Source of the DNA: Nemertoderma westbladi
Lineage: Eukaryota > Animalia > Xenacoelomorpha
Reading direction: 5' to 3'
DNA length: 64,000 nt
Assembly (NCBI GenBank): GCA_032718475.1
Contig: JAUCBJ010007749.1
Location: 1 to 64,000 of the forward strand
The position numbers and the translations under genes are program-made. Shown here piece after piece: positions 18,620 through 62,192 of this stretch. The notes under the pieces were generated by a model that worked only from the letters and a program-made list of their open reading frames with translations, was not told where the DNA came from and did not search any database. The stretch's first letter is position 1; every line of letters begins with the position of its first letter.

Positions 18620-19870
18620 TTTGGACGACCATATCTCCGGTACCGGTAGGCCTATTGAGTCGAAATTTTTTTTAATCTACTTAGAACACTCCAGTGAATG
18701 TTTTTTAGTTTGAAAGTTTTGCCCCAAAATGCTCAGAAGTAATTTCGAAAAAACTGATCATTTTGCGATCATGATCTTTTGACCCCCTAGAATTGAACTT
18801 TTTTATGGTCAAATTTTGGCTACCCCCCCTAATTCGAGGGTGAGGAATCTTTTTGTAATGTTAAGTTTTTTCATACGGTGAACTCACAGCACTTGGTCTT
18901 CGAAATAAAACCGAAAACATGATCTTTCCTGATCATGGCCTGATCAAATCGCTTTTTGAAAATTTTGAAATGCTCAAAAGTTGCCCCTTCTTAATAGAAG
19001 TCGATTAGTAAAAAAAAAGTCGGGGGTCTCAAACAAAGTTTTCAAGAAAATCGGGAAAAACCGAAAAACACGATCTTTTATGATCAGGAAGCTGATCTCG
19101 AGAACTGGTTGCCCGATCGAGCCAATTTTTTTTTAATCAACTCAGAATAGACCATTGCACATTTCTTACAATGAATGTTTATTAGAAAAATGCTTAGATT
19201 CGATTTTAAATATACTGATCTTTTCGCGATCATGATCTTGAGTTTTGACCCACTAGACTTGAACTTTTTTATGCCCAAATTTTGGCTACCCCCCATAATT
19301 CGAGGGTGAGGAATCTTTTTGTGATGTTAAGTTTTTCCATACGGTGAACTCCCAGGACTTGGTCTTTGAAATAAAACCAAAAACACGATCTTTTCTGATC
19401 GCGGCCTGATCAAATCGTTTTTTGAAAATTTCGAAATGCTCAAATGTTGCCCCTTCACCATAGAAGTCGATTCGTAAAAAAAAAATCGGGGGTCTCAAAC
19501 AAAGTGTTCGAGAACATCCAAAAAAACTAAAAAATCTGATATTTAATGATCAGGTATCAGATCTCGAGAACCAGTTGTCCGATCGAGCCAATTTTTTTTT
19601 TAATCGACTCAGGGCGGTGTTCTGAACGTTTCCTACAGTAATTGTTTATATCCAAAATGCTTAGTTCGATTTTACGAAGTCCGATCTTTGCGCGATCATG
19701 ATCTTGCGTTTTGACCGGGAAGAATTCACTTTTTTTAAAATCTTTTAACGGGAATCATGACTAATGTGGGGTCGCTGAATCTTTTTGTAATGTTAAGTTT
19801 TTCGATTGGAGCAAGCCTTGAGTGTCCGATTGCTGATCAAAACTGATCTTTGCTGATCATGGTCAAGATC
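18620..19870. repeat. ~466-bp tandem repeat (~2.7 diverged units), probably internal to a larger non-coding transposon (~18280-20100)
   Basis: AATTCGAGGGTGAGGAATC at 18831 and 19297. GCGATCATGATC at ~18765, ~19227 and ~19693. Confidence 0.8.
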
Positions 19871-20955: not shown

Positions 20956-23900
20956 AACATAAATCGAACAGACAGACATGAGTGGTCCATTATAATAATA
21001 TTAATTATTATTATTAACACAACCCATTGTAAAATAAACATTCATGCGATAAACATAATAAATTATGCATGCACTAAATTAAAAGTAAATTATAAAAGGG
21101 GAGAAGACCGCCCAGGACTGCACTTAGGGGGGGCCATACACTAAAAATCCAGAATGATGAATCTTTATTAATATAAAATTGACACAAACTTTGTTGAGAA
21201 ATTGTACAATGCTAAACAATGCATCAATAAGACCAAAAGTGGAGATTTTAAAGACTGTTCGACACCATCAGTTCAACAGTCTCCCGCTAGAGGGCTACAT
21301 ATCAAAAATGAAATGTCCTCCCATCTGCCATATCTTTGCATTTAATCCGAGCAATCTGAAACTTATCATATTTGTATTAGACCATTAGCTGTCGTGTCAT
21401 GTGTGTCATTCAAAAGGGGCTAATCTGTGTGCAGTGTCTATTCTGTTTGTCCATTTCCTTTCGTTGATCTTATCTTAATCGATTTACTGGTTTAAGCTGA
21501 GTCTTCTAATATAAATACCAAACCACAACTACCTGACTACATGCTGACATGGTGGTCTTTTTGAGGAAGGTGACTCATCTGCTGGGTCAGGCTGTCAGGC
21601 AGTTCTCCAGTCTGTTGCTAGGGGGCGAAATGTCTGAAAGTGAAAAAACATTCTCCCATTTCCGTGATTTTAATTCATATTTACTGAATCTTGGCAAAGT
21701 ATGTATGTACTATCTAGCTATGGACCGCCTACTATATGACTATAGGCCCTACTATCTGACTATACCACATGTTGCATCTTTGTGAAGATCATCAGTTCTT
21801 CAGACTGTCACTAGACGGCGAAATGTCTGAAAGCCAACACCTTACACTTACTTACTTATACTTACTTGTGATGCAGGGCCTAATTAAGGGATGGTGGGTT
21901 GGGAGCCCCTTGGAGAGGAGCCCAAAATTTGATTCAATTTCATAGTGGAAACGCTCGTTTCTTAATCAGTCGAAATCTCAAAATTTTCTGAACCTTTGCC
22001 CTAGTTTATTCATGACAAATGCCGTTGAATATATTGAAAAAAAAACATAGTAATGCGGGGATAAATATAATTAATTAAATAACGAAGTTCAATGCAGTCT
22101 TTGTCTAATGAAGATAAGTTACAAAGTTGCAAGCTTTCAGGTTCAGTTGTAACACTACTCCAAGCGTATATTTTTAAAAAAATAACGATATACTGTAGAC
22201 CTGATGAACGGTTCCAACGGAACCTGAAAGCTTGCAACGTTTTAACTTACTGTATCTTCATTAGAATAAGACTGTGGGTATTGAACTTCGTTATTTTATT
22301 AAATTATTATTATTATTCATTGATATCGTGCAGCATAATATATATGGTTCATTCCTACAGTAAATAGAGAGATATATAGAAGTACGTAGCACAAAATAGA
22401 CAAAGAAACGAACGTATAGTAATACTTGGGGGAATTTTTGCACATAATTAATTAATATCATTAAACAGAAGCAACGTAGTCTAACATATATTTTATTTCT
22501 TCACCTGGCATAACTAAATCACTACATAAACAAAAGGCTAATTCATTGCAACAATTCAACTTCCATTGATCCTTTACGTTAAACAAAAACGAACACATGG
22601 GTGAGCCACGAAGTGAGCGAAGCCTTAGCATATGGGTGCCATTAACGAGTTGTCTCCATCTCGTCGTAAATATTTGAACGCTAATAACTCGGTCATTCCT
22701 TGATGAAATTAAACGAATACATGGTTACTATTGGTACTTTAAGACACGCTCATAACGAAAAAATCATTCACGGGAAAATGCGATTTAGTATAAGACAGAA
22801 ATATCGCGCTTTGATTCTTTAGCGAACAACTAAATTATAGTCACATAATGGATTCTGCAATGAGTAGAATACCAATACTTTCTATATGCACCTAAACAGG
22901 GGCGCTGAATTCAAAAATAACCTCTAAAATATCTTAAAGTTGACACAAATATGATTTTATCTACTCAACTATCTGTGAAACGAAAATTCAGCCTACGCAA
23001 CTATAACCTATGAAACTACCCGTACTTCACACATGATATCTCGTTAACGAAACAAGGTATGGATATGGATAAACTGTTTTTAGATTTTATATCTTTTTTA
23101 GATTTTATTATTATTATTTATTTTTTTTATTTATTTTATTACTTCTTTTTTAGATTTGTTTTTAGATATTTTTTTCCATTGAACACAGATATCAAAATAT
23201 CGATGAATGTGAAACACGGAAGATAAATTATGTATGAAAGTTGTTCTGTGACACTGAGAGCTTCCCGCATTTACAGTGTCCTGTCGTGGAACTAATTAAT
23301 GGCTTGATTGTTTCTATGAGATACTCAAATGTGTCGCAATCCATCCGCAGATATCGCCGATATTGATGTTGTGCATCACACTCTAATAACTCTTGCATTA
23401 TAATGCGATATAGCGATTTTCTTTGCTCCTCAGACAGCCCGTTATCACTTCACTCGCCCCATTTCTTTTTCGGTTCAACCAACAGATAGAAGAGTCAGGC
23501 AATTGCCGAGTTATTCAATAGGACATTTGACTGTAAATTGTACCTTTTTTGCAGTTTTACTGCAATTTGTATAGAATTTTAACGATTTATGATGTTAAAA
23601 AATAGGGGCAGTGGGCAATGCGAAATGTTCCAAAATTATAGGGAGGCTGCGCAAGAATATAATAATAGCCAGCACTACTATTTTACATCACACTAACTAC
23701 AGTAAGTTGCTCTCAAAGGCCATGTTGCTGGTAAAGTTGCCGCCACGCTTAAACTGCGAAAAATTAAGTTGCTCCAAAAAGTTGCAAGTTGACGATAAAA
23801 GTTGCTCAAAAAGTTGCTACGTCTGAACCGGCCTTTAGAACAGTTAATTCTTCCAAATCGTTACACCTCAACACGAGGTAACTCAGAGAATGCAATAATT

Positions 23901-24377
23901 AATTACAAATTTGGTAATTACACCATATAATATAAAATCACAATTCACAGGCTTGCATTTTTTGGCAAAGTGCAAACTCTGCACTGTGGTTGAAATTGTC
24001 ACAGATTTTCTAAGGAGAGTCTCTGAATGATCTTACTTCATGCGATATTCTAAAAGATGATATTATATTTCGTTGAGATAGGAGACAGGACAGGACTTAT
24101 TTTCACCGACTTGCTGTATGTGTAGGGGATGATTATCATTATTGTTGAAAATATATTAAAATGTTTCAAAATATGAACAATTATGATTTATTAGAATAAA
24201 AGAAAAGGAGAAATACTATTCAGTAAATAGTATAATTTAAACAGTATATACATATATATATATAATATAAATATACTGTACAATACACTGCAATTGAAAG
24301 TCTCAAACAACAATCGTTTAAGAGTAATTTATAAATGAATCCCAAAGAAATATAAATTTTAAGAATAGGCCTACAAT

Positions 24378-27300
24378 CTATTTCCCACGTGAAAACAACC
24401 CTAATAACCCACTCACCACATGGCTTACAATTGAAAACTTTCTTGGTTTTCCACTTTTTGAACCATCCGTTTCATTTAAAGAGGTAACAACATTATTAGA
24501 AGAAACCCCACCCTCTACTTGCACACACTCCCATCCTGAGTCAGTTTCTTCAGGAATGGGATCGTTGTCTGAACTGCAGTTATCCATCTCTATATCTGGA
24601 GATTCCACATGTTGTATTTTATCTATCTCTATATCAGGAGATTCCACATGTTGTATTCTATCTATCTCTATATCTGGAGATTCCACATGTTGTATTTTAT
24701 CTATCTCTATATCTGGAGATTCATCATCTTGTATGTCATCTGTCTCTATAACATGAGATTCCTTATCAGTTTCTATATTAGGAGATTCCACATGTTGTAT
24801 TTTATCAGTCTCTCTAACTGGAGATTCGTCATGTTGTATGTTATCTGTCTCTATATCTGGAGATTCATCATGTTGTATGTTAATTGTCTCTATAACTGGA
24901 GATTCCTTATCAGTCTCTATATCTGGAGATTCCTTATCAGTCTCTATATCTGGAGATTCCTTATCCGTCTCTATATCTGGAGATTCCTTATGTTGTATAT
25001 TATCTGTCTCTATATCTAGAGATTCCACTTGTTGACTGTTATCTGTCTCTATATCTGGAGATTCCTTATCCGTCTCTATATCTGGAGATTCATCATGTTG
25101 TATGTTATCTGTCTCTATATCTGGAGATTCCACATGTTGTATGTTATCCGTCTCCATAACTGGAGATTCCACATGTTGTATATTATCAGTCTCTTTATCT
25201 GGAGATTCCACATGTTGTATGTTATCAGTCTCTATATCTGGAGATTTCACATGTTGTATTTTATTAGTCTCTATAACTGGAGATTCCTCATGTTGTATGT
25301 TATCAGTCTCTATATCTGGAGATTCATCATGTTGTATGTTATCTGTCTCTATAACTGGAGATTCCTTATCAGTCTCTATATCTGGAGATTCCTCATGTTC
25401 TATGTTAACCGTCTCTATATCTGGAGATTCCTTATGTTGTATTTTATCAGTCTCTATATCTGAAGATTCCACATGTTGTATTTTATCAGTCTCTATAACT
25501 GGAGATTCTTCATGTTGTATGTTAACCGTCTCTATATCTGGAGATTCCTTATGTTGTATTTTATCAGTCTCTATATCTGGAGATTCCACATGTTGTATTT
25601 TATCAGTCTCTCTAACTGGAGATTCGTCATGTTGTATGTTATCTGTCTCTATATCTGGAGATTCATCATGTTGCATGTTAATTGTCTCTATAACTGGAGA
25701 TTCCTTATCAGTCTCTATATCTGGAGATTCCTTATCAGTCTCTATATCTGGAGATTCCTTATCAGTCTCTATATCTGGAGATTCTTCACGTTCTATGTTA
25801 ACCGTCTCTACATCTGGAGATTCCTTATGTTGTATATTATCAGTCTCTATATCAGGAGATTCTTCATGTTGTATGTTATCCATCTCTATATCTGGAGATT
25901 CCACTTGTTGACTGTTATCAGTCTCTATATCTGGAGATTCCTTAGGCATCTCTATATCTGGAGATTCCTTATGTTGTATTTTATCAGTCTCCATAACTGG
26001 AGATTCCACATGTTGTATATTATCAGTCTCTATATCTGGAGATTCCTTATGTTGTATTTTATCAGTCTCTATAACTGGAGATTCCTCATGTTGTCTGTTA
26101 TCCATCTCTATATCTGGAGATTCCACTTGTTGACTGTTATCAGTCTCTATATCTGGAGATTCCTTATGCATCTCTATATCTGGAGATTCCTTATGTTGTA
26201 TTTTATCAGTCTCTATATCTGGAGATTCCACATGTTGTATATTATCAGTCTCTTTATCTGGAGATTCCACATGTTGTATTTTATCAGTCTCTATATCTGG
26301 AGATTCCACATGTTGTATGTTATCCGTCTCTATATCTGGAGATTCCTTATGTTGTATTTTATCAGTCTCTATATCTGGAGATTCCACATGTTGTATATTA
26401 TCAGTCTCTTTATCTGGAGATTCCACATGTTGTATTTTATCAGTCTCTATATCTGGAGATTCCACTTGTTGTATGTTATCTGTCTCTATATCTGGAGATT
26501 CCACATGTTGTATATTATCAGTCTCTTTATCTGGAGATTCCACATGTTGTATTTTATCAGTCTCTATATCTGGAGATTCCACATGTTGTATGTTATCCGT
26601 CTCTATATCTGGAGATTCCTTATGTTGTATTTTATCAGTCTCTATATCTGGAGATTCCACATGTTGTATATTATCAGTCTCTTTATCTGGAGATTCCACA
26701 TGTTGTATTTTATCAGTCTCTATATCTGGAGATTCCACTTGTTGTATGTTATCTGTCTCTATATCTGGAGATTCCACATGTTGTATGTTATCCGTCTCTA
26801 TATCTGGAGATTCCTTATGTTGTATTTTATCAGTCTCTATATCTGGAGATTCCACATGTTGTATATTATCAGTCTCTTTATCTGGAGATTCCACATGTTG
26901 TATTTTATCAGTCTCTATATCTGGAGATTCCACTTGTTGTATGTTATCTGTCTCTATATCTGGAGATTCCACATGTTGTATATTATCAGTCTCTTTATCT
27001 GGAGATTCCACATGTTGTATTTTATCAGTCTCTATATCTGGAGATTCCACATGTTGTATGTTATCCGTCTCTATATCTGGAGATTCCTTATGTTGTATTT
27101 TATCAGTCTCTATATCTGGAGATTCCACATGTTGTATATTATCAGTCTCTTTATCTGGAGATTCCACATGTTGTATTTTATCAGTCTCTATATCTGGAGA
27201 TTCCACTTGTTGTATGTTATCTGTCTCTATATCTGGAGATTCCACATGTTGTATATTATCAGTCTCTTTATCTGGAGATTCCACATGTTGTATGTTATCC

Positions 27301-30300
27301 ATCTCTATATCTGGAGATTCCTCATGTTGTATGTTATCCGTCTCTATATCTGGAGATTCATCATGTTGTATGTTATCTGTCTCTATATCTGGAGATTCCT
27401 CATGTTGTATGTTATCCATCTCTATATCTGGAGATTCCTCATGTTGTATATTATCAGTCTCTATATCTGGAGATTCATCATGTTGTATGTTATCTGTCTC
27501 TATAACTGGAGATTCCTTATCAGTCTCCATAACTGGAGATTCCACATGTTGTATGTTATCCATCTCTATATCTGGAGATTCCTCATGTTGTATGTTATCA
27601 GTCTCTATATCTGGAGATTCATCATCTTGTATGTCATCTGTCTCTATAATTTGAGATTCCTTACCAGTTTCTATATTAGGAGATTCCTCATGTTGTATAT
27701 TAGCAGTCTCTATATCTGGAGATTCCTCATGTTGTATGTTATTAGTCTCTATATCTGGAGATTCATCATCTTGTATGTCATCTGTCTCTATAACTTGAGA
27801 TTCCTTACCAGTTTCTATATTAGGAGATTCCTCATGTTGTATATTATCAGTCTCTATATCTGGAGATTCCTCATGTTGTATGTTATCCATCTCTATATCT
27901 GGAGATTCCTCATGTTGTATGTTATCAGTCTCTATATCTGGAGATTCATCATCTTGTATGTCATCTGTCTCTATAACTTGAGATTCCTTACCAGTTTCTA
28001 TATTAGGAGATTCCTCATGTTGTATATTATCAGTCTCTATATCTGGAGATTCCTCATGTTGTATGTTATTAGTCTCTATATCTGGAGATTCATCATCTTG
28101 TAAGTCATCTGTCTCTATAACTTGAGATTCCTTACCAGTTTCTATATTAGGAGATTCCCCATGTTGTATATTATCAGTCTCTATATCTGGAGATTCCACA
28201 TGTTGTATGTTATCCATCTCTATATCTGGAGATTTCTCATGTTGTATATTATCAGTCTCTATATCTGGAGATTCATCATGTTGTATGTTATCCGTTTCTA
28301 TATCTGGAGATTTTTTATCAGTCTCTATATCTGGAGATTCTTTATCCGTCTCTATATCTGGAGATTCTTTATCCGTCTCTATATCTGGAGATTTCTTATC
28401 CGTCTCTATATCTGGAGATTCATCATGTTGTATGTTATCCGTCTCTATATCTGGAGATTCCTCATGTTGTATGTTATCTGTCTCTATATCTGGAGATTCA
28501 TCATGTTGTATGTTATCAGTCTCTATATCTGGAGATTCATCATGTTGTATGTTATCTGTCTCTATAACTGGAGATTCCGTATCATTCTCTATTTCTGGAG
28601 ATTCCTCATGTTGTATATTATCAGTCTCCATATCTGGAGATTCCACATGTTGTATATTATCCGTCTCTATATCTGAAGATTTCTTATCAATCTCTATATC
28701 TGGAGATTCTTTATCAGTCTCTATATCTAGAGATTCCTCATGTTGTATATTATCAGTCTCTATATCTGGAGATTCATCATGTTGTATGTTATCTGTCTCT
28801 ATAACTGGAGATTCCTTATCATTCTCTATAACTGGAGATTCCTCATGTTGTATATTATCAGTCTCCATATCTGGAGATTCCACATGTTGTATATTATCAG
28901 TCTCTATATCTGGAGATTCCACATGTTGTATGTTATCCATCTCTATATCTGGAGATTCCTCATGTTGTATATTATCAGTCTCTATATCTGGAGATTCATC
29001 ATGTTGTATGTTATCTGTCTCTATAACTGGAGATTCCTTATCATTATCTATATCTGGAGATTCCACATGTTGTATTTTATCAGTCTCTATATCTGGAGAT
29101 TCCTTATGTTGTATTTTATCAGTCTCCATAACTGGAGATTCCCCATGTTGTCTGTTATCCGTCCCTATATCTGGAGATTCCTCATGTTGTAAATTATCAG
29201 TCTCTATATCTGGAGATTCCTTATCATTCTCTATTTCTGGAGATTCATCATGTGGTATATTATCAGTCTCTATATCTGGAGATTCATCATGTTGTATGTT
29301 ATCCGTCTCTATACCTGGAGATTCCTCATGTTGTATATTATCAGTCTCTATATCTGGAGATTCCTCATGTTGTATATTATCTGTCTCTATAACTGGAGAT
29401 TCGTCATGTTGTATGTTATCTGTCTCTATATCTGGAGATTCATCATGTTGTATGTTATCTGTCTCTATATCTGGAGATTCATCATGTTGTATATTATCAG
29501 TCTCTATATCTGGAGATTCCTCATGTAGTATGTTATCTGTCTCTATAACTGGAGATTCGTCATGTTGTATGTAATCTGTCTCTATAACTGGAGATTCCTT
29601 ATGTTGTATGTTATCAGTCTCTATATCTGGAGATTCCTCATGTTCTATGTTAACCGTCTCTATATCTGGAGATTCCACATGTTGTATTTTATCCGTCTCT
29701 ATAACCGGAGATTCCTCATGTTGTATATTATCAGTCTCTATATCTGGAGATTCCTCATGTTGTATATTATCTGTCTCTATATCTGGAGATTCATCATGTT
29801 GTATGTTATCTGTCTCTATATCTGGAGATTCCTTATGTTGTATATTATCAGTCTCTATATCTGGAGATTCCTCATGTTGTATGTTATCTGTCTCTATAAC
29901 TGGAGATTCGTCATGTTGTATGTTATCCGTATCTATATCGGGAGATTCCACTTGTTGACTGTTATCCGTATCTATATCTGGAGATTCCTCATGTTGTATC
30001 TTATCTGTCTCTATAACTGGAGATTCCTTATCCTTCTCTATATCTTGAGATCCCTTATCCGTCTCTATAACCGGAGATTCCTCATGATGTATGTTATCCG
30101 TCTCTATATCTGGAGATTCCACTTGTTGACTGTTATCTTTCTCTATATCTGTAGAATCCTCATGTTGTATGTTATCAGTCTCTATACCTGGAGATTCCTT
30201 ATGTTGTATTTTATCAGTCTCTATACCTGGAGAATCCTCATGTTGTATGTTATCAGTCTCTATATCTGGAGATTCGTTATGTTGTATTTTATCAGTCTCT

Positions 30301-33300
30301 ATATCTGGAGATTCCACATGTTGTATTTTATCAGTCTCTATATCTGGAGATTCCTTATGTTGTTTGTTATCCATCTCTATACCTGGAGAATCCTCATGTT
30401 GTATGTTATCAGTCTCTATATCTGGAGATTCCTTATGTTGTATTTTATCAGTCTCTATATCTGGAGATTCCACATGTTGTATTTTATCAGTCTCTATATC
30501 TGGAGATTCCACATGTTGTATTTTATCAGTCTCTATATCTGGAGATTCCACTTGTTGTATTTTATCAGTCTCTATACCTGGAGAATCCTCATGTTGTATG
30601 TTATCAGTCTCTATACCTGGAGATTCCTTATGTTGTATTTTATCAGTCTCTATACCTGGAGAATCCTCATGTTGTATGTTATCAGTTTCTATATCTGGAG
30701 ATTCCTTTTGTTGTATTTTATCAGTCTCTATATCTGGAGATTCCACATGTTGTATTTTATCAGTCTCTATATCTGGAGATTCCTTATGTTGTTTGTTATC
30801 CATCTCTATACCTGGAGAATCCCCATGTTGTATGTTATCAGTCTCTATATCTGGAGATTCATCATGTTGTATGTTATCAGTCTCTATATCTGGATATTCC
30901 TCATGTTGTATTTTATCAGTCTCTATAACTGGAGATTCCTTATGTTGTATTTTATCAGTCTCCATAACTGGAGATTTCACATCTTGTATATTATCAGTCT
31001 CTATATCTGGAGATTCCTTATCCATCTCTATATCTGGAGATTCCTTATGTTGTATTTTATCAGTCTCCATAACTGGAGATTCCACATGTTGTATATTATC
31101 AGTCTCTATATCTGGAGATTCCTTATCCATCTCTATTTCTGGAGATTCCTTATGTTGTATTTTATCAGTCTCCATAACTGGAGATTCCACATGTTGTATA
31201 TTATCAGTCTTTATATCTGGAGATTCCTTATGTTGTATGTTATCCATTTCTATATCTGGAGATTCCTTATGTTGTATGTTATCCATCTCTATATCTGGAG
31301 ATTCCACTTGTTGACTGTTATCAGTCTCTATATCTGGAGATTCCTCATGTTGTATGTTATCTTTCTCTATATCTGGAGATTCCTTATGTTGTATTTTATC
31401 AGTCTCTATAACTGGAGATTCCACATGTTGTATATTATCAGTCTCTATATCTGGAGATTCCTTTTCCATCTCTATATCTGGAGATTCCTTATGTTGTATT
31501 TTATCAGTCTCCATAACTGGAGATTCCACATGTTGTATATTATCAGTCTTTATATCTGGAGATTCCTTATGTTGTATGTTATCCATTTCTATATCTGGAG
31601 ATTCCTTATGTTGTATGTTATCCATCTCTATATCTGGAGATTCCACTTGTTGACTGTTATCAGTCTCTATATCTGGAGATTCCTCATGTTGTATGTTATC
31701 TTTCTCTATATCTGGAGATTCCTTATGTTGTATGTTATCCATCTCTATATCTGGAGATTCCACTTGTTGACTGTTATCAGTCTCTATATCTGGAGATTCC
31801 TCATGTTGTATGTTATCTTTCTCTATATCTGGAGATTCTTTATGTTGTATGTTATCCATCTCTATATCTGGAGATTCCACTTGTTGACTGTTATCAGTCT
31901 CTATATCTGGAGATTCCTCATGTTGTATGTTATCTTTCTCTATATCTGGAGATTCCTTATGTTGTATGTTATCCATCTCTATATCTGGAGATTCCACTTG
32001 TTGACTGTCATCAGTCTCTATATCTGGAGATTCCTTATCCATCTCTATATCTGGAGTTTCCTTATGTTGTATTTTATCAGTCTCCATAACTGGAGATTTC
32101 ACATCTTGTATATTATCAGTCTCTATATCTGGAGATTCCTTATGTTGTATGTTATCCATCTCTATATCTGGAGATTCCACTTGTTGACTGTCATCAGTCT
32201 CTATATCTGGAGATTCCTTATCCATCTCTATATCTGGAGTTTCCTTATGTTGTATTTTATCAGTCTCCATAACTGGAGATTTCACATGTTGTATATTATC
32301 AGTCTCTATATCTGGAGATTCCTCATGTTCTATGTTTTCCGTCTCTATATCTGGAGATTCCTCATGTTCTACATTATCAGTCTCTATATCTGGAAATTCC
32401 TCATGTTGTATGTTATCAGTCTCTACACCTGGAGAATCCTCATGTTGTCTGTTATCAGTCTCTATAACTGGAGATTCCTTATGTTGTATGTTATCAGTCT
32501 CTATATCTAGAGATTCCTCATGTTGTATGTTATCAGTCTCTATATCTAGAGATTCCACTTGTTGTAAGTTATCAGTCTCTATAACTGGAGTTTCTTTATC
32601 ATTATCTTTATCTGGAGATTCATCATGTTGTATGTTATCCGTCTCTATATCTGGAAATTCCTCATGTTGTATATTATCAGTCTCTATAACTGGAGATTCC
32701 TTATCATTCTCTATATTTGGGGATCCCTTATCAGTCTCTATAACTTGAGATTCCTCATGTTGTATGTTATTAGTCTCTATACCTGGAGAATCCTCATGTT
32801 CTCTGTTATCAGTCTCTATATCTGGAGATTCCTTATGTTGTATATTATCAGTCTCTATATCTGGAGATTCCTCATGTTCTACATTATCAGTCTCTATATC
32901 TGGAAATTCCTCATGTTGTATGTTATCAGTCTCTACACCTGGAGAATCCTCATGTTGTCTGTTATCAGTCTCTATAACTGGAGAGTCCTCATGTTGTATA
33001 TTATCAGTCTCTATAACTGGAGATTCCTTATCATTCTCTATATCTGGGGATCCCTTATCAGTCTCTATAACTTGAGATTCCTCATGTTGTATGTTATTAG
33101 TCTCTATACCTGGAGAATCCTCATGTTCTCTGTTATCAGTCTCTATATCTGGAGATTCCTTATGTTGTATATTATCAGTCTCTATACCTGGAGAATCCTC
33201 ATGTTGTCTGTTATCAGTCTCTATAACTGGAGAGTCCTCATGTTGTTTATTATCAGTCTCTATAACTGGAGATTCCTTATGTTGTATATTATCAGTCTCT

Positions 33301-36300
33301 ATATCTGGAGATTCCTTATGTTGTATATTATCAGTCTCTATATCTGGAAATTCCTCATGTTGTCTGTTATCAGTCTCTATAACTGGAGAGTCCTCATGTT
33401 GTTTATTATCAGTCTCTATAACTGGAGATTCCTTATGTTGTATATTATCAGTCTCTATATCTGGAGATTCCTTATGTTGTATATTATCAGTCTCTATATC
33501 TGGAAATTCCTCATGTTGTCTGTTATCAGTCTCTATAACTGGAGAGTCCTCATGTTGTTTATTATCAGTCTCTATAACTGGAGATTCCTTATGTTGTATG
33601 TTATCAGTCTCTATATCTGGAGATTCCACTTGTTGACTGTTATCTTTCTCTATATCTGGAGATTCCTTATCAGTCTCTATATCTGGAGATTCCTTATCAG
33701 TCTCTATATCTGGAGATTCCTTATCATTCTCTATAACTGGAGATTCCTTATCAGTCTCTATATCTGGAGATTCCTTATCAGTCTCTATATCTGGATATTC
33801 CTTATCAGTCTCTATATCTGGAGATTCCTTATCATTCTCTATAACTGGAGATTCCTTATCAGTCTCTGTATCTGGATATTCCTTATCTGTCTCTATAACT
33901 GGAGATTCCTTATCATTCTCTATAACTGGAGATTCATCATGTTGTATGTTATCAGTCTCTATATCTGGAGATTCATCATGTTGTATGTTATCAGTCTCTA
34001 TATCTGGAGATTCCTTATCATTCTCTATTTCTGGAGATTCATCATGTTGTATGTTATCAGTCTCTATATCTGGAGATTCCTTATCAGTCTTTATATCTGG
34101 AGATTCCTTATCAGTCTCTATATCTGGAGATTCATCATGTTGTATGTTATCAGTCTCTATATCTGGAGGTTCCTTATGTTGTATATTATCCGTCTCTATA
34201 TCTGGAGATTCCACTTGTTGACTGTTAGGCCTATCTGTCTCTATATCTGGAGATTCCTTATCAGTCTCTATATCTGGAGATTTCTTATCATTCTCTATAT
34301 CTGGAGATTCCTTATCAGTCTCTGTATCTGGATATTCCTTATCTGTCTCTATAACTGGAGATTCCTTATCATTCTCTATATTTGGAGATTCATCATGTTG
34401 TATGTTATCCGTCTCTATATCTGGAGATTCCTTATCTGTCTCTATATCTGGAGATTCCTTATCAGTCTCTATATCTGGAGATTTCTTATCATTCTCTATA
34501 TCTGGAGATTCCTTATCAGTCTCTGTATCTGGATATTCCTTATCTGTCTCTATAACTGGAGATTCCTTATCATTCTCTATATCTGGAGATTCATCATGTT
34601 GTATGTTATCCGTCTCTATATCTGGAGATTCCTTATCTGTCTCTATAACTGGAGATTCCTTATCTGTCTCTATATCTGGAGATTCCTTATCATTCTCTAT
34701 ATCTGGAGATTCCACTTGTTGACTGTTATCTGTCTCTATATCTGGAGATTCCTTATCAGTCTCTATATCTGGAGATTCCTTATCAGTCTCTGTATCAGGA
34801 GATTCCTTATCAGTCTCTATATCTGGAGATTCCTTATCTGTCTCTATATCTGGAGATTCCACTTGTTGACTGTTATCTGTCTCTATATCTGGAGATTCCT
34901 TATCAGTCTCTATATCTGGAGATTCCTTATCAGTCTCTATATCTGGAGATTCCTTATCAGTCTCTATATCTGGAGATTCCTTATCTGTCTCTATATCTGG
35001 AGATTCCACTTGTTGACTGTTATCAGTCTCTATAACTGGAGATTCTTTATCATTATCTTTATCTGGAGATTCATCATGTTGTATGTTATCCGTATCTATA
35101 TCGGGAGATTCCACTTGTTGACTGTTATCTTTCTCTGAATCAGGAGATTCCTTATCAGTCTCTATATCTGGAGATTCCTTATCTGTCTCTATATCTGGAG
35201 ATTCCACTTGTTGACTGTTATCAGTCTCTATAACTGGAGATTCTTTATCATTATCTTTATCTGGAGATTCATCATGTTGTATGTTATCCGTATCTATATC
35301 GGGAGATTCCACTTGTTGACTGTTATCTTTCTCTATATCTGGAGATTCCTTATCAGTCTCTATATCTGGAGATTCCACTTGTTGTAAGTTATCAGTCTCT
35401 ATAACTGGAGATTCTTTATCATTATCTTTATCTGGAGATTCATCATGTTGTATGTTATCCGTATCTATATCGGGAGATTCCACTTGTTGACTGTTATCTT
35501 TCTCTATATCTGGAGATTCCTTATCAGTCTCTATATCTGGAGATTCCACTTGTTGTAAGTTATCAGTCTCTATAACTGGAGATTCTTTATCATTATCTTT
35601 ATCTGGAGATTCATCATGTTGTATGTTATCCGTATCTATATCGGGAGATTCCACTTGTTGACTGTTATCTGTCTCTATATCTGGATATTCCTTATCAGTC
35701 TCTATATCTGGAGATTCCTTATCAGTCTCTATATCTGGAGATTCCTTATCCGTATCTATATCTGGAGATTCCACTTGTTGTAAGTTATCAGTCTCTATAA
35801 CTGGAGATTCTTTATCATTATCTTTATCTGGAGATTCATCATGTTGTATGTTATCAGTCTCTATATCGGGAGATTCCACTTGTTGACTGTTATCTGTCTC
35901 TATATCTGGAGATTCCTTATCAGTCTCTATATCTGGAGATTCCACTTGTTGTAAGTTATCAGTCTCTATAACTGGAGATTCTTTATCATTATCTTTATCT
36001 GGAGATTCATCATGTTGTATGTTATCAGTCTCTATATCGGGAGATTCCACTTGTTGACTGTTATCTGTCTCTATATCTGGAGATTCCTTATCAGTCTCTA
36101 TATCTGGAGATTCCTTATCCGTATCTATATCTGGAGATTCCACTTGTTGACTGTTATCCGTCTCTATATCTGGAGATTCCTTATCATTCTCTATATCTGG
36201 AGATTCCTCATGTTGTATGTTATCAGTCTCTATATCGGGAGATTCCTTATCATTCTCTATATCTGGAGATTCCTCATGTTGTATGTTATCAGTCTCTATA

Positions 36301-39300
36301 TCGGGAGATTCCACTTGTTGACTGTTATCTTTCTCTATATTTGGAGATTCCTTATCAGTCTCTATATCTGGAGATTCCACTTGTTGACTGTTATCTTTCT
36401 CTGAATCAGGAGATTCCTTATCAGTCTCTATATCTGGAGATTCCTTATCTGTCTCTATATCTGGAGATTCCACTTGTTGACTGTTATCAGTCTCTATAAC
36501 TGGAGATTCTTTATCATTATCTTTATCTGGAGATTCATCATGTTGTATGTTATCAGTCTCTATATCTGGAGATTCCTCATGTTGTACGTTATCCGTCTCT
36601 ATATCTGGAGATTCCTTATCATTCTCTATATCTGGAGATTCCTCATGTTGTATGTTATCAGTCTCTATATCGGGAGATTCCACTTGTTGACTGTTATCTT
36701 TCTCTATATTTGGAGATTCCTTATCAGTCTCTATATCTGGAGATTCCACTTGTTGACTGTTATCTTTCTCTATATCTGGAGATTCCTTATCAGTCTCTAT
36801 ATCTGGAGATTCCTTATCAGTCTCTATATCTGGAGATTCCTTATCAATCTCTGTATCTGGATATTCCTTATCAGTCTCTATATCTGGAGATTCCTTATCA
36901 TTCTCTATAACTGGAGATTCCTTATCATTCTCTATATCTGGAGATTCATCATGTTGTATGTTATCCGTCTCTATATCTGGAGATTCCACTTGTTGACTGT
37001 TAGGCCTATCTGTCTTTATATCTGGAGATTCCTTATCAGTCTCTATATCTGGAGATTCCTTATCAGTCTCTATATCTGGAGATTCCTTATCAGTCTCTGT
37101 ATCTGGAGATTCCTTATCTGTCTCTATATCTGGAGATTCCACTTGTTGACTGTTATCTGTCTCTATATCTGGAGATTCCTTATCAGTCTCTATATCTGGA
37201 GATTCCTTATCAGTCTCTATATCTGGAGATTCCTTATCAGTCTCTGTATCAGGAGATTCCTTATCAGTCTCTATATCTGGAGATTCCTTATCTGTCTCTA
37301 TATCTGGAGATTCCACTTGTTGACTGTTATCTGTCTCTATATCTGGAGATTCCTTATCAGTCTCTATATCTGGAGATTCCTTATCAGTCTCTATATCTGG
37401 AGATTCCTTATCAGTCTCTGTATCAGGATATTCCTTATCAGTCTCTATATCTGGAGATTCTTTATCTGTCTCTATATCTGGAGATTCCACTTGTTGACTG
37501 TTATCTGTCTCTATATCTGGAGATTCCTTATCAGTCTCTATATCTGGAGATTCCTTATCCGTCTCTATCACTGGAGATTCCTTATGTTGTATGTTATCTT
37601 TCTCTATATCTGGGGATTCCTTATCAGTCTCTATATCTGTAGAATCCTCATGTTGTATATTATCAGTCTCTATAACTGGATATTCCATATCATTCTCTAT
37701 ATCTGGAGATTCCTCATGTTGTATATTATCTGTCTCTATATCTGGAGATTCATCATGTTGTATATTATCAGTCTCTATATCTGGAGATTCCTTATCCGTC
37801 TCTATATCTGGAGATTCCACATGTTGTATATTATCCGTCTCTATAACTGGAGATTCCTCATGTTGTATATTATCAGTCTCTATATCTGGAGATTCCTTAT
37901 GTTGTATATTATCAGTCTCTATAACTGGATATTCCATATCATTCTCTATAACTGGAGATTCCTCCTGTTGTATATTATCAGTCTCTATATCTGGAGATTC
38001 CTCCTGTTGTATATTATCAGTCTCTATATCTGGAGATTCATCATGTTGTATGTTATCAGTCTCTAAAACTGGAGATTCATCATGTTGTATGTTATCCGTA
38101 TCTATATCTGGAGATTTCACTTGTTGACTGTTATCCGTCTCTATATCTGGAGATTCCACTTGTTGACTGTTATCAGTCTCTATATCTGGAGATTCCTTAT
38201 CATTCTCTATATCTGGAGATTCCTCATGTTGTATGTTATCAGTCTCTAAAACTGGAGATTCCTCATGTTGTATGTTATCAGTCTCTATATCTGGAGATTC
38301 CTCATGTTGTATGTTATCAGTCTCTATATCTGGAGATTCCTCATGTTGTATGTTATCAGTCTCTATATCTGGAGATTCCTCATGTTGTATGTTATCAGTC
38401 TCTATAACTTGAGATTCCACATGTTGTATGTTATCAGTCTCTATATCTGGAGATTCCTCATGTTGTATGTTATCAGTCTCTATATCTGGAGATTCCACTT
38501 GTTGACTGTTATCAGTCTCTATATCTGGAGATTCCTTATGTTGTACGTTATCCGTCTCTATATCTGGAGATTCCTTATCATTCTCTATAACTGGAAATTC
38601 CTCATGTTGTATATTATCAGTCTCTATATCTGGAGATTCCACTTGTTGACTGTTATCAGTCTCTATATCTGGAGATTCCTTATGTTGTACGTTATCCGTC
38701 TCTATATCTGGAGATTCCTCATGTTGTATATTATCAGTCTCTATATCTGGAGATTCCACTTGTTGACTGTTATCTGTCTCTATATCTGGAGATTCCTCAT
38801 CAGTCTCTATATCTGGAGATTCCTTATCAGTCTCTATATCTGGAGATTCCTCATGTTGTATGATATCCATCTCTATATCTGGAGATTCCTCATGTTCTAT
38901 GTTAACCGTCTCTATATCTGGAGATTCCTTATCAGTCTCTATATCTGGAGATTCCACATGTTGTATATTATCCGTCTCTATAACTGGAAATTCCTCATGT
39001 TGTATATTATCAGTCTCTATATCTGGAGATTCCACTTGTTGACTGTTATCTGTCTCTATATCTGGAGATTCCTCATCAGTCTCTATATCTGGAGATTCCT
39101 TATCAGTCTCTATATCTGGAGATTCCTCATGTTGTATGATATCCATCTCTATATCTGGAGATTCCTCATGTTCTATGTTAACCGTCTCTATATCTGGAGA
39201 TTCCTTATCAGTCTCTATATCTGGAGATTCCACTTGTTGTATGTTATCTGTCTCTATAACTGGAGATTCCTTATGTTGTATATTATCTGTCTCTATAACT

Positions 39301-42300
39301 GGAGATTCCTTATGTTGTATATTATCTGTCTCTATAACTGGAGATTCCACTTGTTGTATGTTATCTGTCTCTATAACTGGAGATTCCTTATCAGTCTCTA
39401 TATCTGGAGATTCATCATGTTGTATATTATCTGTCTCTATATCTGGAGATTCCACTTGTTGACTTTTATCTGTCTCTATATCTGGAGATTCCTTATCAGT
39501 CTCTATATCTGGAGATTCCACTTGTTGTATGTTATCTGTCTCTATAACTGGAGATTCCTTATGTTGTATATTATCTGTCTCTATAACTGGAGATTCCTTA
39601 TGTTGTATATTATCTGTCTCTATAACTGGAGATTCCTCATGTTGTATATTATCAGTCTCTATATCTGGAGATTTCACTTGTTGTATGTTATCTGTCTCTA
39701 TAACTGGAGATTCCTTATGTTGTATATTATCTGTCTCTATAACTGGAGATTCCTCATGTTGTATATTATCAGTCTCTATATCTGGAGATTCCACTTGTTG
39801 TATGTTATCTGTCTCTATAACTGGAGATTCCTTATGTTGTATATTATCTGTCTCTATATCTGGAGATTCCACTTGTTGACTGTTATCCGTATCTATATCT
39901 GGAGATTCCTCATGTTGTATGTTATCTGTCTCTATAACTGGAGATTCCTTATGTTGTATATTATCAGTCTCTATAACTGGAGATTCTTTATCATTATCTT
40001 TATCTGGAGATTCATCATGTTGTATGTTATCTGTCTCTATAACTGGAGATTCCTTATGTTGTATATTATCTGTCTCTATATCTGGAGATTCCTTATCATT
40101 CTCTATATCTGGAGATTCCTTATCAGTCTCTATATCTGGAGATTCCACTTGTTGTAAGTTATCAGTCTCTATAACTGGAGATTCTTTATCATTATCTTTA
40201 TCTGGAGATTCATCATGTTGTATGTTATCTGTCTCTATATCTGGAGATTCCTCATGTTGTATGTTATCTGTCTCTATAACTGGAGATTCCTTATGTTGTA
40301 TATTATCAGTCTCTATAACTGGAGATTCTTTATCATTATCTTTATCTGGAGATTCATCATGTTGTATGTTATCTGTCTCTATAACTGGAGATTCCTTATG
40401 TTGTATATTATCTGTCTCTATATCTGGAGATTCCTTATCATTCTCTATATCTGGAGATTCCTTATCAGTCTCTATATCTGGAGATTCCACTTGTTGTAAG
40501 TTATCAGTCTCTATAACTGGAGATTCTTTATCATTATCTTTATCTGGAGATTCATCATGTTGTATGTTATCCGTATCTATATCGGGAGATTCCACTTGTT
40601 GACTGTTATCTTTCTCTATATCTGGAGATTCCTTATCAGTCTCTATATCTGGAGATTCATCATGTTGTATGTTATCCGTCTCTATATCTGGAGATTCCAC
40701 TTGTTGACTGTTATCTGTCTCTATATCTGGAGATTCCTTATCATTCTCTATATCTGGAGATTCATCATGTTGTATGTTATCCGTCTCTATATCTGGAGAT
40801 TCCACTTGTTGACTGTTATCTGTCTCTATATCTGGAGATTCCTTATCATTCTCTATATCTGGAGATTCATCATGTTGTATATTATCAGTCTCTATATCTG
40901 GAGATTCATCATGTTGTATGTTATCCGTCTCTATATCTGGAGATTCCACTTGTTGACTGTTATCTGTCTCTGTATCTGGAGATTCCTTATCAGTCTCTAT
41001 ATCTTGAGTATCTTGAGATTCATTATGTTCTATGTTACCAGTCTCTAAACCTGATGATTCGTCAGATGGTTTGTTAACATCATCATCGCCATCAACATCA
41101 TCAACAATGTCGGGCCCTTCTTTTATGGTCTGCAAACACTTTTTGAGTCGCTTTATTATGCACTCAGCGTCATTCTGAGTCAAACCGAAAGCTACAGTGC
41201 AGAGCAAATAAGGAAAGTGCTGATAGATGTTGTCATGGGAATCAAAGGTTATGAATTTGTGACATCCGATAAACTTCGCTTGTGTGTTGGACTCAACAAT
41301 TCGAATACCAAACATGTTAAAATGAGATAACATGGAATCCAAACGAGAGGCCTTGGAACCCAAAAGAGATGCTTTGCATGCAGTTAGTTTCGCGGCGGAC
41401 TGGTATGTTTTTTGAGTGGCCTTCTGTTCTGTTGGTTGGGTGCCATTGTCGTCTGTTGGTTGGCTGTCGTTGTGGTCTGTTGGTTGGTTGCCATTGTGGT
41501 CTGTTGTTCGGGTGTTGTTGTTGTCTGTTGTTGGTTGGGTTTCGTTCTGATATATCTGATTAGACAATGTCATTGCTATAGATATTCCGTTGTGGGGAGT
41601 TTCTAAAACTTTCTCACCCAACTGCGCTGCTAAAGATGTTAGCTCACCCCTAAAATAACTATAAACGTATTTATGGCTACGCAATAATCCTAGGTACCCG
41701 TCCCTTCCCATAGATAAAAGTGTTATAAATACATCTACAATGGGGGCGGCACTGGCCCTACCAGGGTATGTTCCGCATACAAGTGAGATTAACTCCTCTT
41801 TGGGAGAGGCAATTATCGCTCCTCCTATTGGAACCATTAAATTTGTATGAGTACTCTGAACCACTAAGTCTATAAGACCATTATGTGAAGCCTCATCTAC
41901 AAGTTGGCATAATTTATTGTTTAGTAGGCCGTGGTCGTTGTTTACCAGATGAAACACACTAAACCGTCGACAAATCAATCCGACCAGTTCTAATTGGTCT
42001 GCAACGCTAGGAGCGAAGCTTGACGTAGTCGAGAGAACGCAGAGGACCAGCGACCGATTTATCTCCAAGAGTTTATTCTCTATCTCCAAGATATCGCTAG
42101 TTAATTCGTCTCCAACAAAATTATTTTCAACCACAACCGGTTCCATTCCCGCTGCGGTAATGAATTTGTAACAGGATTTCTGTTCATTTCGTGGCAAAAT
42201 TACGTATTTCGCGGTCGGTTTTTTACCTTTAAGTGCCAATAAACAAAGTGTCAGCGCCATTTCCGTAGCTTCAGGGACAATTACGCAACCTGAGATGGAG

Positions 42301-42698: not shown

Positions 42699-42941
42699 AG
42701 TTATGATATAATTCAATTCTTTGATCAAATTTAAACTTCATAATTAGGATTTATCATCGTAAGTATAAGTTGATCCAATTCGCCATAAAATATGCTTTCG
42801 AGGCATTTGCGATGAGACGTGGTAATTTGCATTATATTATTTTACTTTTTACATTAATCTATGAAACAGACAGCTCGATATCTGGATCTTTGGGGAACAG
42901 TATTATTACTAAATAAGAACTAAGGATTGGAACTAAGAACT

Positions 42942-43681
42942 AAGGGCCGGATTTAGAGTGGTGGGGTGGCCTGGGGCCGGGTCAGTGGTGGGGGGCCTGG
43001 GCTCAACTGTATACCTTTCAAAGAAACCTGAATGTAGATGTAAAAATTTGGAAATTTCTGGAAATTTCCTATACATTTTCCGGAAAATTCCTATTTTATT
43101 AATTATTTTATTTAGCTCATTCTGAAAACATATAGTAAAACACAAGTAGAGTAAACAAAACACTAGAGACAATGGATTTCTGCTTAGATGTGTTTAGGTG
43201 GTTCGTTGTCTTGTCTCTTGTGGTCGTAACTACGGATGAAATATACTTTTCCGGAAATTTCCGAAATTTCCTTGAAAAACATTTTTCAGGAAAACTCACA
43301 TCCCTATATATTAGACGTGGAAATTATGAATTTGAAACATGTTCCTGTTTATATCCGTATAAAAATATCTGATCCAAAAATGCCCAATTGAAATTGAAAG
43401 TGAAAAAAATTTACTTTCATAAGCTACAAAAATATTTACTGTTTTTCACACTAACTTTTTGTTTTAATTTTTCATATGGCAAAATTCAAAATTGCCATGT
43501 TCGGTTTCAGTTCGTTTCCAGTTCGGCTCCTCGGCTCCTCTATAGTTTGGTCGATCCCTATAGTTGTGGGATCGTTGTGGGGGGCCCCTGTGGTGGGGGG
43601 CCCCTGTGGTGGGGGGCCTGGGGCCTCGGCCACTTCGCCCTTCGCTCCCCCCCCCCCCCCCCCCCCCTAAATACGGCCCTG
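42942..43681. mobile_element. hAT-like MITE just upstream of the SepSecS-like gene, possibly with a nested element (~43040-43305)
   Basis: AGGGCCGGATTTAG ... CTAAATACGGCCCTG terminal inverted repeats and GGGGGCC subterminal repeats. No clean TSD was seen. Confidence 0.6.
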
Positions 43682-46980: not shown

Positions 46981-47722
46981 TGGTAATTATTATAATATTA
47001 ATAAAATGTGAGAGAAGCAGTCTGAAATATAGTAGTTTGCAAGCGATAACGCAATATCGTTGAATATACGAGAGGCATGCAATATACGATCACAAACTAC
47101 AGGAGCTGTACTAATGATATATCAGAAATCAATAGTCGAGATTTATATTGGTTTGGGTATGAGCGCCAGATGCCTAATATGTATTTTACTGTCTCATTAC
47201 CAGTATACGTAGATACGAAAACTGCAATCGTATTAAGTATATATTATTGGTGTAAACGCTACAGTCGGCAGCCGACAAACGTCTGCCGACAACTGTAATT
47301 ATAAACAAAAACGAAATGAACTGTAATCTGTGCCCTTGTCTCTCCTTTATTGTTTTGGTTAGAATTACCAGCCTTTGTAACGTATTCCTTTGCCTGCCAA
47401 TTCACAGGAAGTAGAAGAAGTCGTGTTACTGCAACAAAACGAAATTATTGTTCAGTATAGCAATATTAGAAACCCTAACACATTATTATGAATTATACTG
47501 GTGTTGGGTAAAACAGCTGTTGCTGCAATTACAATTAGTTAATTTCTGTAGATTTTGCGGTGCATGTGTAATTATTCAATATAATGTGATTTTTTCAAAA
47601 CTTTACATACCAGGCGGGGTAAATGCGTATAGTTGTAAAATATTAACTTATTTATTAATAATAATAATTATTATTTATTAATTATTATTATTATATTATT
47701 ATTTATTAATTATTATTATTAT

Positions 47723-62067: not shown

Positions 62068-62192
62068 TTGTTGCGATATTTATGCGACTGAACGCAAGTA
62101 GTTGCGATATTTATGCGACTGAACGCAAGTTGTTGCGATATTTATGTGACTAAACGCAAGTTGTTGCGATATTTATGCGACATAACTCAAGT
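62068..62192. repeat. 31-bp tandem repeat (~4 copies) at the LINE truncation point
   Basis: TTGTTGCGATATTTATGCGACTGAACGCAAG repeats begin immediately after the NYRGI codons. Confidence 0.9.

Follow-up and report, generated by a model that had tools for sequence, protein, structure and literature searches.

The window analysed here is the whole stretch of 64,000 nt. On its minus strand it carries one very long open reading frame, running without an internal stop over 6,106 codons from an ATG at 42698 to a TAG at 24380-24378 (pI 4.05), in which a SepSecS-derived head is followed by an acidic linker, a coding minisatellite and a unique C-terminus (Table 1). The sequence-only reading had proposed a protein of ~0.7 MDa with a repeat joined in frame to a SepSecS head, and this layout held up, as one 695-kDa frame. 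The head region reads as intron-free, its alignment to human SepSecS starts at residue 7, and no tRNA or Rfam family was found in the window.

Table 1. Coordinates of the open reading frame and its parts within the window.
Feature	Position	Strand	Details or basis
Whole ORF	24378..42698	minus	6,106 aa, 695 kDa
SepSecS-derived head, aa 1-527, full fold retained, catalytic site lost	41118..42698	minus	Pfam, PDB, Foldseek, model, residue losses
His284-Thr285 replacing human SepSecS Asp283-Lys284 (PLP Schiff-base lysine)	41844..41849	minus	Alignment and short-read contigs
In-frame head insertion, ~60-70 aa, aa 381-450	41349..41558	minus	Homologue comparison
Acidic linker, aa 528-571, degenerate proto-units of the array	40986..41117	minus	
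Coding minisatellite, aa 572-6040, 5,469 aa, 465 units of 39/27/45 nt	24579..40985	minus	
Unique C-terminal 66 aa	24381..24578	minus	
Acidic W-x-x-V motif, aa 6052-6059, LIR/AIM-like candidate	24522..24545	minus	
Terminal basic-flanked amphipathic/hydrophobic helix, aa 6088-6105, predicted membrane anchor	24384..24437	minus	
AATAAA, possible polyadenylation signal, 186 nt past the stop	24187..24192	minus	

Short-read contigs agree with the assembly at two points: those of X1 and X3 show no difference at the His-Thr site, and the C-terminal coding end is the same in contigs of X1, X2, X3 and X5 (0 differences in X5, a third sample). No RNA run with the locus was listed in the run search, which says nothing on expression. 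In run X5, which is DNA by guess only and whose longest record is 11.6 kb, the last 303 bases, made up of the C-terminal coding end and ~100 nt past the stop, were covered at a depth of 12.8, with no contig cover on the unique flank (23136-24274) or on the head. Taking this pattern for a 3'-biased RNA library, and so for a sign of expression, was considered and dropped; it is not counted as evidence, since absent cover proves nothing and a low-complexity stretch (24239-24277) at the end of an X5 contig was skipped in the cover.

A SepSecS fold that has lost essential catalytic residues

The head matches PF05889 (Pfam, E 2.5e-99) and PDB 3hl2 (E 1.2e-117), and its predicted model (pLDDT 87) aligns with 7l1t at a Foldseek TM of 0.95 by target, with both the PF05889 domain and the fold-type-I SepSecS fold present. 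Relative to eukaryotic SepSecS/SEPSECS (PF05889; 3hl2, 7l1t, 7mdl), it shares the whole fold at 40-51% identity, the dimer interface and the N-terminal helices, but lacks the PLP lysine and Arg398, has a broken P-loop and an acidic instead of a basic surface, and carries both a 70-aa insertion and a tail of 5,500 aa, whereas tail length among 190 homologues has its median at 23 aa and does not exceed 661. The inserted segment (73 aa vs. a homologue median of 12) contains a 24-nt (8-aa) repeat of its own and is predicted to be disordered.

The losses include residues on which catalysis would depend. The residue equivalent to the PLP lysine (human Lys284) is Thr in the head but Lys in 334 of 335 distinct homologues aligned at this position; the Asp283-Lys284 pair used to test SepSecS identity reads His-Thr, with no Lys at or beside the PLP position. 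Eight of the 18 core catalytic and P-loop residues (as listed in Table S3 of PMC11602143) are lost, compared to at most four in any other of 338 homologues, and four of the seven residues of the phosphate-binding loop (Gly96, Arg97, Ser98, Gly99, Gln105, Pro106, Lys107) are gone. Equivalents of Asp283, Tyr255, Gly145, Arg97, Gln105 and Arg398 are missing, while those of Glu74, Arg75, Ser98 and Arg313 are retained. Phe396 and Thr397 are lost along with Arg398, the residue for the tRNA-Sec discriminator base, which is Phe460 here; this last loss is not decisive alone because archaeal enzymes likewise lack Arg398. The tRNA-binding helix 9 has a net charge of -1 in the head vs. +1 to +6 in 189 homologues. 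With the PLP lysine and roughly half of the active-site residues gone, the head is, by its residues, a SepSecS pseudoenzyme in which the fold is kept, essential catalytic residues are lost and the frame is intact, and not the SepSecS proper for which it had been taken.

It could still be argued that the host makes its selenocysteine with this very head and that the tail is a regulatory acidic extension, comparable to helix 16 of mammals but enlarged, given a complete fold and 10 of 18 core residues retained, but with no Lys at the PLP position or beside it, the six equivalents named above lost, and PLP on Lys284 termed obligatory (PMC3541580), we regard this as extremely improbable. Helix 16 (PMC11602143, PMC10164584) is alike in being an acidic extension past helix 15; it is, however, ~17 residues long, mammal-specific and docked on Arg398, whereas the present tail is >300x longer, Pro-rich and paired with a head lacking that arginine. 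The earlier suggestion that the tail grew from a normal short acidic SepSecS tail does not apply generally either, as only 9 of 167 homologue tails of >=10 aa contain >=30% Asp/Glu, and the acidic helix 16 is a mammalian innovation (PMC11602143). The proposed role of the tail as a nucleic-acid mimic is unlikely in the form of a tRNA mimic acting on its own head, since the tRNA-binding surface of the head is no longer positively charged.

Contrasting with the active site (11 of 21 positions retained), the dimer interface is retained at 31 of 33 positions (Fisher p 0.0006, with the interface list derived from a model), and the N-terminal helices at 26 of 30. Active-site losses are only modestly enriched relative to all other conserved columns (p 0.035), 33 of 111 of which changed as well. 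Outside the invariant columns, the head and the neighbouring proteasome gene are conserved to about the same degree (0.74/0.56/0.30 vs. 0.73/0.58/0.33); the invariant columns themselves are retained at 35 of 46 in the head and 43 of 44 in that gene. A homodimer model scored 0.76 vs. 0.40 for the best control, possibly owing to likeness to the solved human enzyme, with >=91% of contacts agreeing between runs and pLDDT >=84; among solved pairs, 21 of 30 attained the mark for a dimer, and among single chains none of 23 (17/29 and 0/30 for eukaryotes). An oligomeric head is likely on the whole, and it may be a tetramer as in the sequence-only reading.

Such selective retention of the dimer and N-terminal interfaces, needed for hetero-oligomerisation, would also suit a dead subunit whose partner is an active SepSecS encoded by a paralogue at another locus, the dead subunit serving to regulate or localise that partner, and the retained Glu74, Arg75, Ser98 and Arg313 equivalents fit this as well. 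The analogy is with trypanosomatid prozymes (PMC5201418, PMC3663545), where a dead enzyme fold is reportedly kept for oligomerisation; in the present case the active partner would be hypothetical, and the tail is giant. This option appears rather improbable: no second SepSecS-like contig of >=80% identity was found in X1 or X3 (a diverged paralogue would escape), helix 9 has lost its positive charge, and a 620-kDa tail is hard to account for in a regulatory subunit.

Homologue searches reached a best identity of 51% among 282 and 250 matches (lengths 293-933 and 30-3357 aa) and of 48% among 150 cluster representatives (longest 1,130 aa); neither a close relative nor a long acidic fusion was found in these searches, the word-index search covering proteins of <=3,357 aa. 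A quick tree of 63 rows placed the head weakly in a rotifer-containing clade (SH-aLRT 83, branch 2.0), a grouping not seen in the PSMB3 tree. The absence of introns gives no evidence for a retrocopy, because the neighbouring PSMB3 is intronless too.

Another interpretation is that the gene is a decaying relic left after selenocysteine loss, with the minisatellite as a passenger and the frame weakly kept (e.g., because a long 3' UTR destabilises the mRNA). Its active-site changes mostly look like single-base steps (11 of 13 examined appear one base from a codon for the conserved residue), the terminal branch amounts to 2.0 changes per site, the repeat units evolve neutrally (see below), and the Sec machinery degenerates in animals that have lost their selenoproteins (10.1101/014928, PMC5330540). 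Neutral decay to the observed level, applied uniformly, would however have left ~8 stops in the 527 head codons, where no stop or frameshift occurs; the interface is retained, the essential gene next door, PSMB3, has just as long a branch within its own family, and a frameshift-free array requires real selection. We consider a relic quite unlikely.

Selection on the frame of the acidic array

The array comprises 465 units, of which 318 are 13 aa long, 145 are 9 aa long and two are 15 aa long. At the DNA level 184 of the units are distinct. The array extends over 5,469 aa with no stop, in agreement with the several hundred 13-aa and 9-aa units initially described. It holds 427 Ser-Pro, corresponding to the expected pair in most units, and 250 His (4.6%), lacks Cys and Trp, and is a polyanion as proposed (net charge -1560), although Asp and Glu make up 34% of residues and not ~40%. 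The array is likely disordered. Its length is known from the window assembly alone; long reads can resolve it, as exact repeats reach at most 500 nt and nine in ten 200-mers (90%) occur once. Giant low-complexity acidic repeats rich in Ser-Pro and subject to unit turnover also occur in neurofilament-H tails, titin PEVK and Plasmodium Glu-rich antigens, a likeness in repeat type for which we claim no homology, the head being different.

All unit-length changes in the array are of -12 or +6 nt, so that none breaks the frame, as the first reading had stated, whereas 11-35 frame-breaking indels would be expected from the non-coding satellites of the window. These satellites do have frame-breaking unit lengths (non-triplet units in 6/6 arrays examined), and 10 of their 12 indels break frame over 62 substitutions, whereas the array has none over 215 substitutions (Fisher p 6e-7, or p 0.0014 on the 69 distinct alleles only; two 34/21 satellite arrays form one family, leaving ~8 independent control events). 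The other five frames of the array contain 441, 1038, 20, 56 and 116 stops. In the coding frame, no stop was observed vs. 2.2-11.7 expected, with P(0) between 0.11 and 1e-5 according to the event count and mutation spectrum used. By itself, the absence of stops is modest evidence, for all the near-stop codons first pointed out, since only 3.5% of possible single changes yield a stop; the case for selection is made chiefly by the indel test.

Synonymous changes match expectation (45 observed, 45 expected), and fall below it among rare variants (19 vs. 28), so that no purifying selection on unit sequence was seen in the array variants; dN/dS, at ~1, gives no support as a sign of coding. With frameshifts and stops absent yet amino-acid change neutral, the array is under selection for an open frame beyond neutral expectation, and what selection holds is the frame, not the unit sequence. 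This makes it a clean case of a 16-kb minisatellite kept in frame while its amino acids turn over neutrally, and the window itself supplies the non-coding controls.

These results bear on whether the array is translated at all, or fully. An internal intron might be suspected from four GTAAGG donor-like sites, in phase 1 inside the array, and from the short CCAG in each unit, and the length could be an assembly artefact. An intron, though, would have no reason to stay open over 16.4 kb, with neither a stop nor a frameshift, the array is purine-rich without the T-rich acceptor of the AKAP17A intron (the one intron found in the window), and repeats of this kind can be resolved by long reads; either explanation is very unlikely.

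Alternatively, the bulk of the polyanion could itself be the function, whether by buffering Ca, Mg, other metals or protons multivalently or by chaperoning basic proteins, the dead head raising valence only and the C-terminus being incidental. The charge, the Asp/Glu and His content and the Ser-Pro phospho-acceptor sites fit this, as does selection on frame and not on unit sequence, which suits a property dependent on length and charge. A late stop, however, would cost little buffer, and its absence from all 465 units suggests that the C-terminus is needed; moreover, synonymous and non-synonymous changes, including loss of acidic residues, are tolerated alike. We thus view this as possible but unlikely.

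The C-terminus and a putative membrane tether

The 66-aa C-terminus has no match in Pfam, PDB or Atlas, and no orthologue was found. Its terminal helix (mean hydrophobicity 0.73, moment 0.44) is predicted to bind membrane and has basic flanks and an uncharged stretch of 16 residues, which is short for a membrane-spanning anchor. A resemblance of the helix to the small-His-x-x-small-x-x-x-Gly pattern of BNIP3-type anchors was considered and set aside, with no match in Pfam, PDB or Atlas and the pattern not confirmed in the papers searched. Upstream, a W-x-x-V motif is a candidate ATG8-binding (LIR-like) site: it fits the W/F/Y-x-x-L/I/V core, is preceded by acidic residues and lies in a region predicted to be disordered (consensus from PMC6769624). 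The motif alone arises in 3.5% of shuffles, and jointly with the helix in 0/130 intergenic open stretches and 0/20,000 shuffles, under criteria chosen after the sequence was seen. In order of parts only (folded N-terminal domain, candidate LIR motif, putative C-terminal membrane segment), the protein is like the tail-anchored LIR receptors BCL2L13, BNIP3 and NIX (PMC12765899); it differs in showing no sequence similarity to them in Pfam, PDB or Atlas, in its short hydrophobic stretch and in its far longer spacer.

The best reading, to which we give about an even chance, is that the protein is a non-catalytic oligomeric hub bearing disordered polyanionic spacers and probably ending on membrane. 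The dead SepSecS-derived head would form the hub, the arms of 5,469 residues, predicted to be disordered, would act as spacers, and each arm would end in the predicted membrane-binding helix and the candidate LIR-like motif; here we infer translation of the ORF, dimer and tetramer formation, disorder, and membrane and ATG8 binding. Historically, the active site would have decayed once freed from catalysis, whether through a loss of selenocysteine use or through a duplicate that kept the job, and the minisatellite would later have grown by unequal exchange between head and C-terminus, with only frame-keeping changes surviving because the C-terminus must still be reached.

SepSecS is close to a one-job enzyme, and from archaea to humans its active site hardly varies. 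A catalytically dead version that keeps fold and interface would be, within the literature searched, the first SepSecS pseudoenzyme; the same search returned no case of SepSecS kept for a non-selenoprotein role. The nearest parallel is SPS1, the non-selenoprotein paralogue of selenophosphate synthetase, a Sec-pathway enzyme kept for a role beyond selenoprotein synthesis even where selenoproteins were lost (10.1101/014928), although a different enzyme and one without a giant repeat. A dead SepSecS would point either to a selenocysteine loss not yet reported, in an animal lineage outside the insects, or to a duplication that is hidden, and serves as a warning that annotation by Pfam match would credit this genome with SepSecS.

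In its most specific form, this would be a Sec-less animal lineage whose sole SepSecS gene was co-opted to supply the tetrameric core of a polyanionic tether of 2.8 MDa with four arms, the arm tips docking on membrane and ATG8, working as an organelle spacer or autophagy receptor, which we consider unlikely as a whole. A rough polymer-scaling estimate gives a radius of gyration of 23-33 nm per arm.

Reading frame and repeat array

The gene is a single minus-strand ORF, from an ATG at 42698 to a TAG at 24380-24378, of 6,106 codons (695 kDa, pI 4.05 if translated). As the sequence-only reading had described, its SepSecS-derived head continues in frame into a long acidic array, here resolved into 465 units, 184 of them distinct: 318 measure 39 nt, 145 measure 27 nt and 2 measure 45 nt. 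The 27-nt and 45-nt forms are the 39-nt unit minus 12 nt and plus 6 nt, respectively. The array contains 34% Asp+Glu (rather than the ~40% first estimated), 4.6% His and 427 Ser-Pro, lacks Cys and Trp, and has a net charge of -1560. Its length is taken from the window assembly, and inflation by assembly appears unlikely, since exact repeats do not exceed 500 nt and 90% of its 200-mers occur only once.

Features of the gene and its surroundings (aa, residues of the predicted protein; other positions refer to the window)
Feature	Position	Strand	Remark
SepSecS-like head	aa 1-527	minus	
In-frame minisatellite within head	41349-41558	minus	24-nt unit
Acidic linker	aa 528-571	minus	
Tandem array	aa 572-6040; 40985-24579	minus	
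Unique C-terminal end	after array	minus	66 aa
PSMB3 (proteasome subunit beta-3)	63030-63647	plus	intronless; rate control
AKAP17A-like gene	14771-14338 + 7433-5966	minus	PF25015, E 5.6e-56 for exon 2
Reverse-transcriptase fragment	8575-9468		inside AKAP17A-like intron
Non-LTR retrotransposon fragments	539-2170, 3681-4493	minus	endonuclease domain at 539-1531
Non-LTR retrotransposon fragments	47639-48871, 61040-62088	plus	
466-nt tandem duplication	18777-19716		
High-copy dispersed repeats	42940-43400; 22600-23070		directly upstream and downstream of gene

Of all possible single changes in the array, 3.5% would create a stop. Counting distinct alleles gives 69 events, counting rare events 138, and counting all spanning-tree changes 231; across these counts 2.2-11.7 stops were expected and none was found (P(0) 0.11 to ~1e-5), so that the stop count by itself is no more than suggestive. 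Indels provide the stronger evidence, and bear out the earlier claim that all of them keep the frame: each of the six non-coding satellites in the window includes non-triplet units, with 10 frame-breaking indels per 62 substitutions vs. 0 per 215 in the array, where 11-35 were expected (Fisher p 6e-7, rising to 0.0014 when the 69 distinct alleles are counted; two of the six satellites are one family, leaving ~8 independent control events). Overall, synonymous changes matched the neutral expectation (45 vs. 45; among rare alleles, 19 observed vs. 28 expected), which, together with the lack of stops and frame-breaking indels, suggests that selection acts on the array frame and not on unit sequence. 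It is very unlikely that the array is spliced out or mis-assembled: donor-like sites are present within it, but not the T-rich acceptor found in the window's one intron.

One antisense frame of the array has only 20 stops. Ser-to-Phe/Tyr changes yield 12 acidic F/Y-P-x-I cores that resemble the ATG8-binding LIR motif, probably by chance.

Loss of catalytic residues and structural retention in the head

The head matches PF05889 (E 2.5e-99) and human SepSecS (E 1.2e-117), and its predicted model (pLDDT 87) reaches a TM of 0.95 (by target length) to 7l1t. Where homologues have Asp-Lys, however, it has His-Thr. The PLP cofactor on Lys284 is described as obligatory (PMC3541580; PMC11047290), and this column is Lys in 190/190 word-search homologues and 146 of the 147 cluster representatives covering it (the two sets overlap by two proteins). 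Eight of 18 core positions (as listed in Table S3 of PMC11602143) are lost (human numbering: G96S, R97L, G99E, Q105H, G145E, Y255H, D283H, K284T), compared with at most 4 in any one of 338 other homologues. Also replaced are the equivalents of Phe396, Thr397 and Arg398, the last reported to read the tRNA discriminator base, its mutation weakening or abolishing binding (PMC10164584), and the net charge is -6 (-4 without the insertion) vs. a homologue median of +6 (range -1 to +15, n=190). These changes are not long-read errors, since the short-read runs X1 and X3 (both possibly sources of the window, and not independent) gave contigs that span 41030-42992 with 0 differences. The head is thereby predicted to be a dead enzyme (pseudoenzyme), and an active one, despite the retained fold, is scarcely credible.

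Among the homologues, just one further protein, KXS16986.1 of Gonapodya prolifera (P0353), has Thr in place of the PLP lysine. The remainder of its active site is nearly intact, so the Thr could reflect either an error in the sequence or the beginning of a comparable loss. The head minisatellite, second to and smaller than the main array, occupies a loop of ~12 aa in homologues, and its units faintly resemble those of the array.

A decaying relic carrying a passenger repeat would account for the catalytic losses, but is quite unlikely: the head has no stop or frameshift, vs. ~8 stops predicted under uniform decay to the same level. In sub-invariant columns it keeps the family consensus at 0.74, 0.56 and 0.30, vs. 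0.73, 0.58 and 0.33 for the neighbouring PSMB3 in its own family, with 35/46 vs. 43/44 invariant columns kept. Conserved positions are retained at 31/33 of the modelled dimer interface vs. 11/21 of the active site (p 0.0006), the contrast being weaker between the active site and all other conserved columns (p 0.035; 78/111 retained in columns belonging to neither set). The presumed tetramer contact, two helical segments near the N-terminus, keeps 26/30. The head thus seems not to be simply decaying. A homodimer predicted for aa 5-385 scored 0.76 vs. 0.40 for the best control (at least 91% of contacts in agreement, pLDDT no lower than 84). The pass mark was reached by 21/30 solved pairs and 0/23 single chains (eukaryotes, 17/29 and 0/30), although here the pass may stem from likeness to human SepSecS, whose structure is solved. 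A dead subunit partnering an active SepSecS paralogue is improbable, as no second contig of X1 or X3 matched the head at ≥80% identity, a cut-off that a diverged paralogue would escape.

Tail, C-terminal end and proposed role

The tail had been read as an expansion of the normal short acidic SepSecS tail, a view that homologues do not favor: their tails have a median of 23 aa (n=190), with at least 30% Asp/Glu in 9 of 167 tails of at least 10 aa, and no long acidic fusion occurs among the 282, 250 and 150 homologue matches listed or counted. Acidic helix 16 has been reported as a mammalian trait, with extensions occurring sporadically in invertebrates (PMC11602143). The repeat tail does not represent an enlargement of a normal SepSecS feature.

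The last 66 aa have no match in Pfam, PDB or Atlas. They include an acidic W-x-x-V motif (aa 6052-6059) fitting the LIR consensus with its upstream acidic residues (as given in PMC6769624), and an uncharged amphipathic stretch between basic residues (aa 6088-6105; hydrophobicity 0.73, moment 0.44). Under criteria set post hoc, the motif arose in 3.5% of shuffles and in 1/130 open stretches between genes, the helix in 0.035% of shuffles and 2/130 such stretches, and both jointly in none of either, which suggests that this end is not random. Contigs of X1, X2, X3 and X5 (a third sample) show 0 differences across the coding end, to which the comparison is confined, and extend 28-122 letters beyond 24580 in the direction of the array. 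A requirement for this C-terminus would account for the intolerance of stops right up to the final units.

We consider, at about even confidence, that the dead head would form an oligomeric hub, likely a dimer or tetramer, with the repeat forming disordered, polyanionic arms that probably attach by their tips to a membrane, and perhaps to ATG8. The open frame, the residue losses and the retained interface are evident from the sequence analysis; translation, oligomeric state, disorder, and membrane and ATG8 binding are inferences. BCL2L13-type receptors served as comparison for the layout of the chain (PMC12765899); a specific autophagy-receptor version of this hub is doubtful. That the polyanion, with its large negative charge, is instead a bulk ion buffer or chaperone is rather unlikely. 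Pseudoenzymes and coding minisatellites are known kinds, and their combination here appears to be new within the searches made; literature searches, of incomplete coverage, returned no SepSecS pseudoenzyme or giant-tailed SepSecS.

Host and genomic setting

The animal host evolves fast and is poor in introns: its intronless PSMB3 reaches no more than 63% identity across 625 matches. Trees of the head and of PSMB3 did not place its lineage. Animal Sec losses are described for insects, some mites and nematodes, with SPS1 as a precedent for a Sec-pathway enzyme retained for another role (PMC5330540; 10.1101/014928).

The AKAP17A-like gene has a single GT-AG intron of ~6.9 kb. Among the retrotransposon fragments, the GC-rich ORF at 47639-48871, with no Pfam match, is presumably a restriction-like-endonuclease element.
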